DNA from: Escherichia coli
GTDB lineage: Bacteria > Pseudomonadota > Gammaproteobacteria > Enterobacterales > Enterobacteriaceae
Reading direction: 5' to 3' (one strand)
NCBI RefSeq assembly: GCF_036507355.1
Contig: NZ_AP027877.1
Length of the DNA stretch: 64,000 nucleotides
Under the pieces are notes generated by a model. It was given only the letters and a program-made list of their open reading frames with translations, did no database searches and was not told the origin of the DNA. Both the position numbers and the translations under genes were made by a program. Shown in pieces: positions 52,290-63,145 of this stretch. Within the stretch, counting starts at the first letter, position 1. Each line of letters starts with the position of its first letter.

Positions 52290-52435
52290 GCCCCTCCCGA
52301 GGAAGGGGCCATAAATAAGGAAAGGGTCATGATGAAGATACTCATCATCGTGGCGCTCTTAGTGATTAGCTACCCAGCATACTAAGACTACCAGGGCGGG
52401 GGAAACCCCGCTCTACCCTCACTCCTGAAAGTATG
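52290..52435 (-). ncRNA. sib: Sib antisense sRNA (antitoxin) overlapping ibs; ends approximate
   Basis: In Ibs/Sib loci the Sib RNA is encoded fully antisense to ibs; hairpin CCCCTCCCGAGGAAGGGG lies upstream of ibs (candidate Sib terminator on the minus strand). Confidence 0.35.
52329..52385 (+). CDS. ibs: Ibs-family type I toxin (18 aa)
   Basis: ATGATGAAGATACTCATCATCGTGGCGCTCTTAGTGATTAGCTACCCAGCATACTAA encodes MMKILIIVALLVISYPAY; good RBS (AAGGAAAGGG) upstream. Confidence 0.75.
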   Translation: MMKILIIVALLVISYPAY

Positions 52436-52721
52436 CCTTCACGTTCAGAATGTCAATCCGCAGGCTTTGCAGTCTGCGATCCTGCCAGCAAATATTCTTT
52501 GCGAGACGTTACGCAATAATCACAGAGGAAACTATTTTGTTCACGCGTTAGCGATAGACTGAATTCAGGGCGAAAGGAGGTAAGCCGACGATTTCAGCGG
52601 GACGCTGAAACGGGAAAGCCCCTCCCGAGGAAGGGGCCTTAAATAAGGTAAGTTGCACATTTAAAATCTCTTTAATTATCAATAAACTACAATGTATAGG
52701 TCATTATTAGTCAAAATAAAA

Positions 52722-53612
52722 TCATTTGTTGATTTCAATTTTGTCCCATTCTCTCCCTCGGCTATCCCTATACCGCGCCGCCATTGAATCTGATTTATGT
52801 CCGAGAAGACGTTGAGCAAACTTATCGCCAATCTGATTCCGGTATAGCCTCGCCGACAGGCTACGCAGTTCATGGAATGTTGGTGGGTCTCCATCAAATG
52901 AGAGTCCAGATGCATTTCTCGCCTTTGTAAAATACTTCGATACTGTTTTCGGGGAAAGCGGTTCGTGATGCGTTGAGGCGATTATAGTTTCACTGCCGCT
53001 GGCCTCCCTGCATTTCTGTAGTGTATCAGCCAATGAGATATTGAGCGCGTCAATCGTTAGCATCAGCGGAATGGCGAGCTTAGCCCCTGTTTTACCCTGT
53101 TCAATGTGAAGATGGTTGTCGTTTATGTCTGACCATTTCATTCTGCACAAATCGCCGACTCTCTGCCCTGTAACGACAGCCGAATCCATCGCCAGTCTTA
53201 GCCAGATTGGGAGAGGTTCGGCTGCATGGTAAATCGCGACATACTCATTAGCTGTCAGCCTTGAGCGCCTTACTTCTGACTTTGCTGTGCGGGTTGCTGT
53301 TACCGGATTCGTTTCCACATGCCCCTCGGCTATTGCCTCACGAAAAACGTCAACAAGGGTTGACCTGATTAATTTTGCGGAAGCCGCTTTACCTTCTGCT
53401 ACGTAGGTGTTTAGCATTGCTGCCACCTCTTTCGTTGATATGTCAGCGAGCGGTTTGTCCGGCAATTTTCTTCGGATTGCCCTGATTTTGCTGGCGTAGT
53501 CGAGTAGAGTTTTCGTCCTGATCCCCCTCTCGCTGAGGATTGTTTCATATCGGTCAAGCCACGCATGAAGAGTGATTACGTCAGCGCCTTTAATCCTGTC
53601 TATCAGTGAGGT
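52722..53612 (-). pseudogene. int: Lambda-family tyrosine integrase, C-terminal fragment (truncated by IS600-like insertion)
   Basis: C-terminus ...HELRSLSARLYRNQIGDKFAQRLLGHKSDSMAARYRDSRGREWDKIEINK resembles the lambda Int C-terminus (catalytic R, H-x-x-R, Y). Frame remains open upstream of the first Met up to the IS600 end at 53613. Confidence 0.8.
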
Positions 53613-54122
53613 AGCCTGAGTTTAACGGACACTCCTTCCTGAAATAGAATGGCATCAGAAGGAGCTAATAATGAGCAGAAAAACCCAACGTTACTCTAAA
53701 GAGTTCAAAGCCGAAGCTGTCAGAACGGTTCTTGAAAATCAACTTTCGATCAGTGAAGGCGCTTCCCGATTATCTCTTCCTGAAGGCACTTTAGGACAAT
53801 GGGTTACCGCCGCCAGAAAAGGGCTCGGTACTCCTGGTTCCCGCACGGTGGCTGAACTGGAATCTGAAATTCTGCAACTGCGTAAGGCGTTAAATGAAGC
53901 TCGCCTTGAGCGAGATATATTAAAAAAAGCAACGTATTTTGCACAGGAGTCGCTGAAAAATACGCGTTAATCGAACAATGGCGACAACAATTTCCCATTG
54001 AAGCGATGTGTCAGGTATTTGGTGTATCCAGGAGCGGTTATTACAACTGGGTACAGCATGAACCCTCAGACAGAAAACAAAGTGATGAGCGGCTAAAACT
54101 GGAGATTAAGGTGGCACATACG
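53613..54122 (+). mobile_element. IS600-like element, 5' fragment only
   Basis: Left end TGAGGTAGCCTGAGTTTAACGGACAC at 53613; complete OrfA (53671..53970, identical to the other copy); OrfB matches only for about 38 residues (MCQVFGVSRSGYYNWVQHEPSDRKQSDERLKLEIKVAH) then diverges. Confidence 0.75.
53671..53970 (+). CDS. IS3-family transposase OrfA
   Basis: Identical to the 99-aa OrfA at 6533..6832. Confidence 0.85.
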   Translation: MSRKTQRYSKEFKAEAVRTVLENQLSISEGASRLSLPEGTLGQWVTAARKGLGTPGSRTVAELESEILQLRKALNEARLERDILKKATYFAQESLKNTR

Positions 54123-54149
54123 GTAACAAGCCGATACATGCCACACGCA

Positions 54150-54747
54150 TTACTCACCCTCTTTGATGCGAATGCCAGCGGCGCGTGGCACATTAACTTC
54201 CACGATGCGCACTGTTGGTTTGTACATCTCAATCGCTGTCAGCCAGTCAGCTCCTGTCATGCGCTTTTCCGCATCGCCATTAGTCCACTGAACCGGTACA
54301 CCAATAGCCTTCATCGCGATTTCTATTTCCCCGGCAATGGCGCTTTTTCCGCAACCAGTAAAACCAGAAACAACGACAAGAACTTCACCTTTGGCTGGTT
54401 TTATTTCCCGTGCTTCCAGTTCTGCAATGCGCTTACTTCCATCCGCGATTACTCCCTCGTAATATTCACGCTGCTCGTTGAGTTTTGATTTTGCTGCTTC
54501 AAGCTCAACTCTCAGCTTCCCTACCGTTAGCGCAATATCCTCGTTCTCCTGGTCACGGGATTTGATGTATTGCTGGTTTCTTTCCCGTTCATCCAGAAGC
54601 GCCAGCACGGTTGCCGGATTAGCCTTGGCAACAAAATCACGGACTGGCTTACAATCAATCTCAGCAATGGGTTGATACGATGTGTATCCATGCTGTCTTG
54701 TATAACTACCGTGACGAATAACGAAAAAATCACCATTTATTTTTTTA
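54150..54747 (-). pseudogene. Phage early-region protein fragment (Ead/Ea22-like, tentative), N-terminus removed by IS1
   Basis: Reading frame enters from inside IS1 (the ORF-track start codon lies within the IS1 end); C-terminal part ...LVVVSGFTGCGKSAIAGEIEIAMKAIGVPVQW. The family assignment is by resemblance only. Confidence 0.4.
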
Positions 54748-54771
54748 GCCTGCCACGGTAATGACTCCAAC

Positions 54772-55275
54772 TTATTGATAGTGTTTTATGTTCAGATAAT
54801 GCCCGATGACTTTGTCATGCAGCTCCACCGATTTTGAGAACGACAGCGACTTCCGTCCCAGCCGTGCCAGGTGCTGCCTCAGATTCAGGTTATGCCGCTC
54901 AATTCGCTGCGTATATCGCTTGCTGATTACGTGCAGCTTTCCCTTCAGGCGGGATTCATACAGCGGCCAGCCATCCGTCATCCATATCACCACGTCAAAG
55001 GGTGACAGCAGGCTCATAAGACGCCCCAGCGTCGCCATCGTGCGTTCACCGAATACGTGCGCAACAACCGTCTTCCGGAGCCTGTCATACGCGTAAAACA
55101 GCCAGCGCTGGCGCGATTTAGCCCCGACATAGCCCCACTGTTCGTCCATTTCCGCGCAGACGATGACGTCACTGCCCGGCTGTATGCGCGAGGTTACCGA
55201 CTGCGGCCTGAGTTTTTTAAGTGACGTAAAATCGTGTTGAGGCCAACGCCCATAATGCGGGCTGTTGCCCGGCAT
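54772..55275 (-). CDS. insB: IS1 InsB
   Basis: Identical 167-aa InsB. Confidence 0.9.
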
Positions 55276-61983: not shown

Positions 61984-62342
61984 TTCGCATCCCTAAAGAC
62001 AATGAACTTTGAATAGATGAAACCGCACACCAGGCTGATGGCGGAGAAGGTGACAAGAGTTATCATCGGGGGAAGTGCGCATCTATCAGCAGCCCATCCA
62101 ACAGTAGCACTGAGTGTTCCCATGAACCCGACATATAACATGTAGCGCATCGTTGTAGTTGATGCTTTGAATGTGAATTTTGCATTCGCGAAGAAGCTAA
62201 AACTCACAGCCACAACGAAACCTGCGAAGTTTGCCAGAGCCTGATTGGTATGCGCGGCATAGATACATACACCAAAAACCACCCAGTGTATAAGTGTGTT
62301 CAGCACACCAATCGAGGTGTACCTTGCAAATATATTTAACAT
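61980..62342 (-). CDS. gtrA: GtrA flippase-like small membrane protein
   Basis: 120 aa: [59 protein letters not shown]..., matching GtrA of Shigella serotype-converting phages as I remember it. Confidence 0.9.
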
Positions 62343-62494
62343 TTATTTAATCAATGAGTTCTGAAAGGTATGAAGTCTATCATCCAAGTCTCAATCGATC
62401 GATACTTGCGGTAGTTGATGAGGAAAACTCTGGTACACAAAGCTTTGCACTGGACTGCAAGGTGTTGTGCTTCTCTGGAGTGCGACATGTTTGA

Positions 62495-62536
62495 TAACAA
62501 AAAATTAGCGCAAGAAGACAAAAAATCACCTTGCGC
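62495..62536 (-). terminator. Candidate intrinsic terminator between the prophage right end and gtrA
   Basis: Hairpin GCGCAAG-(15 nt)-CTTGCGC, followed on the minus strand by TAATTTTTTG. Confidence 0.35.
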
Positions 62537-62685
62537 TAATGCTCTGTTACAGGTCACTAATACCATCTAAGTGGTTGATTCATAGTGACTGGATATGTTG
62601 TGTTTTGTCGCATTTTGCAGTCTATTATTTAACCGCGAATTCGTGTAATGCGATGATTTTTAAGTGATTAATATTATTTTGTCAT

Positions 62686-62812
62686 CCTTAAATAAGGAAA
62701 GGGTCATGATGAAGTGGATCATCATCGTGGTGCTCTTAGTCATAAGCTTCCCGGCTTACTAAGACTACCAGGGCGGGGGAAACCCCGCTCTACCCTCACT
62801 CCTGAAAGTATG
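62686..62812 (-). ncRNA. sib: Sib antisense sRNA of the split unit (3' end and terminator displaced by the prophage); ends approximate
   Basis: Antisense to ibs 62706..62762; the hairpin normally upstream of ibs is now found only at the left junction (about 52615..52636). Confidence 0.3.
62706..62762 (+). CDS. ibs: Ibs-family type I toxin (18 aa)
   Basis: Encodes MMKWIIIVVLLVISFPAY; its native upstream sequence is replaced by prophage-end DNA. Confidence 0.7.
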   Translation: MMKWIIIVVLLVISFPAY

Positions 62813-62994
62813 CCTTCACGATAAGATTGTCAATCTGCAGGCTTTGCAGTCTGCGATCCTGCCAGCAAATATTCTTTGCGAGTCGTTACGCAATAATCAC
62901 AGAGGGAACTATTTTGTTCACGCGTTAGCGATAGACTGCATTCAGGGCGAAAGGAGGTAAGCCGACGATTTCAGCGGGACGCTGAAACGGGGAA

Positions 62995-63145
62995 CCCTCT
63001 CCCGGAGAAGAGGGCTTTTAATAAGGAAAGGGTTATGATGAAGCACGTCATCATACTGGTGATACTCTTAGTGATTAGCTTCCAGGCTTACTAAGAACAC
63101 CAGGGGGAGGGGGAAACCTCTCCCTAACCCTCACTCCTGAAATTA
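62995..63145 (-). ncRNA. sibA: Sib antisense sRNA (SibA-like); ends approximate
   Basis: Antisense to ibsA; upstream hairpin CCCTCTCCCGGAGAAGAGGG is a candidate terminator on the minus strand. Confidence 0.35.
63035..63094 (+). CDS. ibsA: Ibs-family type I toxin, IbsA-like (19 aa)
   Basis: Encodes MMKHVIILVILLVISFQAY. Confidence 0.75.
   Translation: MMKHVIILVILLVISFQAY

Follow-up and report, generated by a model that had tools for sequence, protein, structure and literature searches.

The window analysed here is the whole of a 64,000-nucleotide (nt) stretch of Escherichia coli DNA (contig NZ_AP027877.1, RefSeq assembly GCF_036507355.1). Our subject is the array of Ibs/Sib type I toxin-antitoxin units that makes up its mdtA-yegL intergenic region, together with a 10,049-bp island lying within that array. 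On one side mdtA is encoded on the minus strand, with its end near 52.1-52.2 kb, and on the other side yegL starts at 63315 on the plus strand. After in silico removal of the island, the array repeats with a period of 328-332 nt. A preliminary description of this DNA had reported three divergent Ibs open reading frames (ORFs) over 52329-63094, a span that consists mostly of island and contains little toxin DNA. The units and their parts, including the Shine-Dalgarno (SD) sequence of the middle toxin gene, were delimited as follows.

52170-52497 (+): Ibs/Sib unit 1, intact, adjoining mdtA, with an IbsB-like toxin (repeat families D2-D4)
52285-52420 (-): Sib1 antitoxin RNA, 136 nt, ends placed by homology to the annotated K-12 SibB
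52329-52382, to 52385 with the stop codon (+): ibs copy 1, encoding MMKILIIVALLVISYPAY, identical to RefSeq WP_109543994
52498-52648 (+): left half of unit 2, with the inferred ibs promoter, the start motif, a leader of ~54 nt and, on the minus strand, the Sib2 terminator (family D3)
52649-62697: defective prophage remnant of 10,049 bp inside unit 2, with an HK022-type integrase and attachment (att) module
62698-62874 (+): right half of unit 2, with the SD and ORF of ibs2 and, for Sib2, the promoter and the first 100 nt (family D2)
62706-62759, to 62762 with the stop codon (+): ibs copy 2, encoding MMKWIIIVVLLVISFPAY, identical to RefSeq WP_012767741, SD kept
62875-63210 (+): Ibs/Sib unit 3, which is ibsA/sibA, intact, adjoining yegL (families D3, D4 and D7)
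62989-63132 (-): SibA (Sib3), 144 nt, with 98.6% identity to SibA as annotated in K-12
63035-63091, to 63094 with the stop codon (+): ibs copy 3, which is ibsA, encoding MMKHVIILVILLVISFQAY, identical to K-12 IbsA

Exact-string translation of the window gave three Ibs peptides on the plus strand, each followed by a stop codon, and all three are identical to RefSeq Ibs family toxins, hydrophobic peptides of 18-19 aa. The peptide of copy 1 (WP_109543994, named 'type I toxin-antitoxin system Ibs family toxin') also occurs in E. coli XH990 and E2, and that of copy 2 (WP_012767741) in XH990, O157:H7, the BL21-derived NEBExpress and E2, while copy 3 is WP_010723109 (IbsA). On a draft contig that shares this arrangement, the same products of 18 and 19 aa are listed under the Pfam family PF13956 (Ibs_toxin). 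Opposite the three ORFs, on the minus strand, the Rfam family SIB_RNA (RF00113) matched at 52314-52456 for copy 1 (136.5 bits), at 62691-62833 for copy 2 (140.1 bits) and at 63020-63168 for copy 3 (149.5 bits). With a gathering score of 56 and E-values from 5e-28 to 3e-31, the three Sib matches are far above chance level. Translation and Rfam matches thus agree with the three toxin ORFs reported earlier, and together with the alignment to K-12 SibA-E they place a cis-antisense Sib over the whole ORF and the translation initiation region in all three units.

The limits of the Rfam matches lie ~30-36 nt away from the K-12-annotated Sib ends, so that the Sib promoter region falls inside the match and the terminator hairpin outside it. 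A full-length SIB_RNA match is therefore no proof of an intact Sib gene, and the match at copy 2 is full-length because the limits are shifted toward the promoter and leave out the terminator.

We set the Sib ends in the window by alignment to the K-12 sibA-E annotation, that is, by homology, and the ibs starts were placed in the same way. For ibsC, a primer put the start 18 nt past the 3' end of SibC, so that the mRNA is 159 nt long and has a leader of 60 nt (Han et al. 2010, PMC2943612). A homologue of this mapped start, the motif CAGCGGGACGCTG, occurs at 52267 in unit 1, at 52595 in unit 2 and at 62972 in unit 3; starts mapped by experiment exist for ibsC and ibsD only, and the window positions follow from them by homology. 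In units 1 and 3 the motif stands 62-63 nt upstream of the AUG, and in unit 2 it lies to the left of the island. Judged by homology to the K-12 Sib ends, the Sib promoter, body and terminator are contiguous in units 1 and 3, and the predicted fold of Sib1 comprises a closing stem, internal hairpins and a terminator hairpin. Units 1 and 3 therefore read as intact toxin-antitoxin pairs, and they are probably the only two at this locus.

Unit 2 is present in two halves. Its left half is 88% identical to the matching part of unit 1, and its right half is 94% identical to unit 1 over 300 nt. The island thus interrupts the middle unit and does not lie between units, at a point 9 nt upstream of the ibs2 AUG, and it accounts for the 10.4 kb that separate copies 1 and 2. 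The following features mark its ends.

52637-52648: attL core CCTTAAATAAGG, 12-bp direct repeat, with the overlap AATAAGG at 52642-52648
52722-53465 (-): truncated integrase, residues 111-357 of an HK022-type Int (Pfam Phage_integrase, 9e-40)
62498-62548 (-): lambda-type sib/tI hairpin in the phage P arm, a strong hairpin plus T run and the first terminator predicted on the way downstream from the Sib2 promoter
62686-62697: attR core CCTTAAATAAGG, 12-bp direct repeat, with the overlap AATAAGG at 62691-62697

When the two island ends were rejoined, they formed an attP with a downstream integrase gene that is 92% identical to HK022 and mEp235. In a three-way alignment of attP the mean column identity was 94%, and the half-sites ATCCTT and TAAGTTG were kept, so that the junctions have HK022-homologous attP arms, core-binding sites and direct repeats. 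The integrase remnant is 95% identical to the Int of mEp235 over 247 aa and is close kin to HK022 Int. It lacks the N-terminal 110 residues, which form the arm-binding domain, and the break lies beside an IS3-family fragment (match at 53671-53970; IS, insertion sequence). The truncated integrase is presumably inactive, and the remnant is unable to excise on its own.

We therefore read the locus as a common three-unit mdtA-yegL array whose middle unit was split by an HK022-type prophage that later decayed, leaving ibs2 probably silent, and we put the probability of this reading at about 0.88. Each unit encodes a hydrophobic Ibs of 18-19 aa, and its other strand encodes a Sib of ~140 nt that covers the ORF and the ribosome-binding region. 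In the proposed course of events, a temperate phage with an HK022-type integrase would have taken the middle unit as its bacterial attachment site, with strand exchange within the 7-bp overlap AATAAGG between the Sib terminator hairpin and the ibs SD. The prophage would then have decayed to 10 kb, losing the N-terminus of the integrase and receiving IS1 and IS3 while keeping gtrABC. The earlier proposal that one of three units hosts the prophage is borne out, the host being the middle unit and the guest a remnant with HK022-type att and int.

The insertion would have altered both genes of the unit. The unit 2 start motif at 52595 and its ~54 nt leader are on the far side of the island from the SD and ORF of ibs2. 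Having kept its SD and lost its promoter and most of its leader, the ibs2 toxin ORF is probably silent. The antitoxin RNA is probably altered as well. The Sib2 promoter, read from the sequence as TTGACA-17 nt-TACTTT, is intact and identical to the K-12 sibB promoter, and the Sib2 5' end is at 62797; the terminator hairpin of Sib2 is at 52613-52636, 10 kb from the Sib2 body, and the 3' end of the reconstituted Sib2 falls at 52613. With its own promoter active and its terminator lost, Sib2 would run on to the phage tI hairpin, which aligns to the 'sib transcription processing site' feature of HK022 X51962, and would thus probably be a chimeric RNA of ~300 nt. In the predicted fold of this chimera the Sib core is kept in the first 100 nt and the tI hairpin stands at the end. 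The Sib2 promoter, the tI hairpin and gtrABC all read in the minus-strand direction (62343-62797 for the stretch with promoter and hairpin), and a transcript from the constitutive Sib promoter that passed tI would continue into the gtr operon.

A very improbable alternative is that all three units are intact, independent toxin-antitoxin pairs and that the prophage merely lies alongside one of them. Three ORFs with an SD, three full-length Rfam SIB_RNA matches and a Sib2 promoter that is the same as that of K-12 sibB would fit it. However, the insertion is within the unit, only 9 nt from the toxin start codon; the ibs start homologue and the terminator hairpin of unit 2 lie across the 10-kb island; and the Rfam match limits do not include the terminator. 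The preliminary description had also held that each toxin needs a matching Sib. That part stands insofar as an antisense SIB_RNA match is present at each ORF, but Sib2 is separated from its terminator and ibs2 from its promoter, and since the host unit has been cut in two, a count of three toxins with three matching Sibs would overstate the likely functional set. For annotation, this means that counts of Ibs ORFs or SIB_RNA matches overestimate functional pairs where a unit serves as a phage att site.

It is also conceivable, though we consider it unlikely, that ibs2 is still expressed from a cryptic P-arm promoter or by read-through from the island, so that the toxin was rewired and not silenced. 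The SD and ORF are kept here and also beside attR in E. coli E2 and M18, and AT-rich phage arms often hold promoter-like sequences. On the other side, gtrABC, the island genes nearest to ibs2, are encoded on the other strand, and a scan of 62200-62705 found no plus-strand promoter-like site, although this is a weak test that misses the true Sib promoters and terminators. In strain 32F4 the ibs next to attR has a G-to-A change in the SD (AATAAGA) and an F-to-W change in the peptide, which hint at relaxed constraint in a single case.

Several points limit the reading of a split unit with a silent ibs2. The consensus promoter and terminator scans also miss the tI hairpin and thus carry little weight, so that the empty promoter scan is of limited help; a silent ibs2 and a Sib2 of ~300 nt are read from structure; the ibs start was mapped by experiment for ibsC and ibsD, not for ibsB-type units; and the exact island at this site was found in no genome of the E. 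coli collection (5,426 genomes). This exact island is present at this site in three draft NCBI assemblies.

The number of units was compared across E. coli by taking 60 records at even steps from a ranked list of 5,422 matches in E. coli and reading the span between the flanks. About 27 genomes of this sample (~45%) had three units (span 1172), 24 had two (span 837-844, K-12 derivatives among them), four had four (span ~1415, including the BL21-derived NEBExpress) and one had a single unit, the remainder being interrupted or partial. A genome count at 80% coverage was discarded, as the repeated units let BLAST cover the whole query and two- and three-unit arrays could not be separated. Over its whole length, the island-deleted locus (1172 bp) was 99.7% identical to E. 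coli XH990 and others, and XH990 has three PGAP-annotated Ibs genes with no insertion, whose products are identical to the three peptides of the window. Therefore, the three-unit array is older than the insertion and was not made by it.

These alleles bear on a further explanation, namely that the third copy was made by the phage, either as a carried ibs/sib fragment or through a duplication of the array, in a host that originally had two units like K-12. Elements that integrate at RNA genes often bring along a copy that replaces the end of the gene, and the extra unit does flank the island. However, the duplication at the island ends is just 12 bp long, phage DNA begins right outside the core and matches the HK022 arms, and prophage-free alleles such as that of XH990, with three units and identical peptides, refute it; we give it almost no credence.

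Three copies are an ordinary allele, one of the two commonest in E. coli, already annotated and published. Seven Ibs genes were reported in O157:H7 Sakai, along with lineage-specific Ibs duplications, Shigella boydii included, and tandem repeats in one intergenic region were named as a hallmark of the Ibs/Sib family (Fozo et al. 2010, PMC2887945). The three-copy array itself thus matters little, being a frequent allele whose peptides are in RefSeq and whose copy-number variation has been published.

The comparison with K-12 agrees with the preliminary description in that K-12 has two units here, ibsB-sibB and ibsA-sibA, and the alignment it had proposed identified copy 3 as IbsA and copies 1 and 2 as IbsB-like. 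The locus, the unit structure and the period of 328-332 nt are shared, whereas the window has three units instead of two and its middle unit is interrupted. K-12 IbsB is MMKLLIIVVLLVISFPAY, from which copy 1 differs at 3 residues and copy 2 at 2 residues; relative to K-12 SibB, Sib1 is 94.9% and the reconstituted Sib2 95.6% identical. The O157:H7 allele has three uninterrupted units with one residue different in unit 1, and the NEBExpress allele has IL-, WI- and LL-type units plus IbsA, also uninterrupted; PGAP names the products of both as Ibs family toxins. In E. coli 32F4 an IbsA ORF stands behind an IbsB-type leader and terminator (ggggcctta-AATAAGG-aaagggttatg), and this hybrid unit may have come from unequal recombination among units.

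The bacterial site used by the prophage, GGCCTTA-AATAAGG-AAAGGGT, lies between the Sib terminator hairpin and the ibs SD and ends 2 nt before the ibs AUG. Unit 1 has a similar attB-like sequence, ggccata-AATAAGG-aaagggt, which is unoccupied. The B half-site reads CCTTA in all occupied units examined (four cases only) and CCATA in unit 1 and K-12 ibsB. Compared with HK022, whose core is ATCCTTT-AGGTGAA-TAAGTTG, the core of the window element is ATCCTTA-AATAAGG-TAAGTTG. We confirmed the attB of HK022 in the K-12 torS-torT spacer as GCACTTT-AGGTGAA-AAAGGTT, with half-sites GCACTTT and AAAGGTT that are similar to GGCCTTA and AAAGGGT of the Ibs site. The two elements are alike in the Int (95-97% identical), the P and P' arms, the sib/tI site and the core half-sites (ATCCTT.. 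and TAAGTTG). In contrast, the overlaps AGGTGAA and AATAAGG are unrelated, and the window element is integrated inside an Ibs/Sib unit and has neither the HK022 overlap nor the torS-torT position. By its sequence, the element would have worked like HK022 but with another site specificity. Lambda 'site-affinity' variants classically arise when excision from a secondary site changes the overlap, and by analogy such a route would explain a near-unchanged Int at a new site. For phage biology, the locus is a natural case of a near-unchanged HK022 integrase (95-97%) acting at another site via a changed overlap.

The same site is occupied elsewhere. Among the 5,426 E. coli genomes, junctions with at least 80% query coverage numbered 84 of the attL type and 86 of the attR type (~1.5%). 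E. coli E2 carries a near-complete lambdoid prophage of ~42 kb with NleG cargo in the middle (WI-type) unit of the same three-unit allele, M18 carries a 16 kb remnant with a full-length Int (97% to the HK022 type) in the IbsB unit of a two-unit host, and strain 32F4 has another gtr-carrying remnant at the Ibs attachment site. E2 and M18 share with the window the attL/attR architecture, the overlap AATAAGG and an HK022-type Int. They differ from the window element in its 10 kb length, truncated int, gtrABC cargo and several IS, and in attR, which reads ATCCTTA here and ATCCTTT there. In both strains the identity of attL and attR breaks at the base left of AATAAGG, which supports this heptamer as the overlap. 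An exact-pattern scan of IMG/VR gave 0 matches to an intact attP with an AATAAGG core, a BLAST search of isolated phages with the attP core region yielded HK022-type cores only and none with an AATAAGG core, and among GTDB species representatives the attL junction had one match only, in a Bacillus genome, taken as chance. In the literature we found no paper on a prophage att site in ibs/sib or between yegL and mdtA. An HK022-type integrase lineage that uses the ibs ribosome-binding region as attB and splits the unit is thus the only part of the locus that we did not find described; as a new site specificity within a known integration system, with an attB inside a toxin-antitoxin unit that is occupied in ~1.5% of complete E. 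coli genomes, it adds modestly to what is known.

A more speculative extension, which we think doubtful, is that the ibs ribosome-binding region, at the junction of the TRD2 recognition domain and the Sib terminator, is the dedicated attB of an HK022-type lineage with the overlap changed from AGGTGAA to AATAAGG, and that integration acts as a reversible switch. If so, integration would uncouple one Ibs ORF from its promoter, and the toxin gene would become whole again once an intact prophage excised; the Sib would become a chimeric RNA of ~300 nt ending at the tI/sib hairpin and transcribed toward the phage cargo, here gtrABC.

The copies also differ in the regions through which Sib RNAs recognise their targets. 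A Sib represses its own ibs mRNA, and base-pairing starts at two recognition domains, TRD1, which pairs within the ORF, and TRD2, which pairs at the translation initiation region; the two are modelled as acting independently, with discrimination resting on the variable sequence that each contains (Han et al. 2010, PMC2943612). Toxicity of the peptide and repression by the cognate Sib were shown for the K-12 pairs in the literature cited there. Sib3 is 72-74% identical to Sib1 and Sib2, and Sib1 and the reconstituted Sib2 are 91.9% identical, differing at 11 of 136 positions. Five of these differences are in the TRD1-equivalent (42, 45, 49, 54 and 57) and four in the P6 loop (80-83); the other two are at position 67 and at position 110, the latter at the edge of the TRD2-equivalent, which is otherwise identical in Sib1 and Sib2. 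Because TRD2 is essentially common to both, we predict that some cross-repression between units 1 and 2 is plausible. The two units form a natural test case for the TRD1/TRD2 discrimination model.

Inside the island, the remaining features are the following.

54748-56301: two identical IS1 in tandem with a 777-nt period (768-bp IS1 plus 9 bp; repeat family D1; NCBIfam transpos_IS1 and self-BLAST)
57618-58846 (+): complete IS3-family element with ORFs at 57675-57959 and 58016-58828, 38-nt terminal inverted repeats (I1) and an NCBIfam transpos_IS3 match (8.5e-101)
59580-61067 (-): type-specific glucosyltransferase (Pfam Glucos_trans_II, PF14264)
61054-61983 (-): gtrB (Pfam Glycos_transf_2, PF00535)
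61980-62342 (-): gtrA (Pfam GtrA_DPMS_TM, PF04138)

The three overlapping minus-strand gtr ORFs adjacent to attR form a predicted gtrABC cluster for O-antigen glucosylation, and the same gtr genes stand beside a P22-type tailspike in E. coli PSS-11. A gtr cluster beside the attachment site is typical of serotype-converting phages, and the order gtrA-gtrB-type-specific gtr next to the att site is shared with SfII, SfV and SfX of Shigella flexneri and P22 of Salmonella. Unlike in these phages, the integration site is neither thrW, argW nor tRNA-Pro. We rejected the possibility that the island is the gtrIC island of S. flexneri 1c, as gtrIC sits at tRNA-Pro between yejM and yejO. A second att remnant was likewise considered for a 29-nt likeness to the P arm at 57509-57537 (repeat family D8) and discarded, BLAST giving only a 13-nt match at chance level. 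The island also holds an Ead/Ea22-like ORF. The tandem IS1 copies are 100% identical and in direct orientation, so that they form an IS1 dimer within the prophage remnant. Abutting the second IS1 is a 289-aa ORF (56297-57166, minus strand) that had no Pfam or NCBIfam match; its C-terminal half is repetitive and extremely rich in Glu, Ala, Lys and Arg, with a coiled-coil-like look, and its internal 27-37 nt repeats are families D5 and D6.

Elsewhere in the window, IS1 is present in four 100% identical copies (4227-4994, 17567-18336, 54757-55524 and 55534-56301, the last two being the dimer), and an IS3-family fragment is duplicated, 6383-6896 being the same as 53607-54120. This unusually high IS load is possibly Shigella-like. 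The window also contains the CyaR/RyeE small RNA gene at 38121-38206 on the minus strand (100.7 bits) and a thiamine pyrophosphate (TPP) riboswitch at 21857-21953 on the plus strand (71.2 bits), both of which are expected for this chromosomal neighbourhood.

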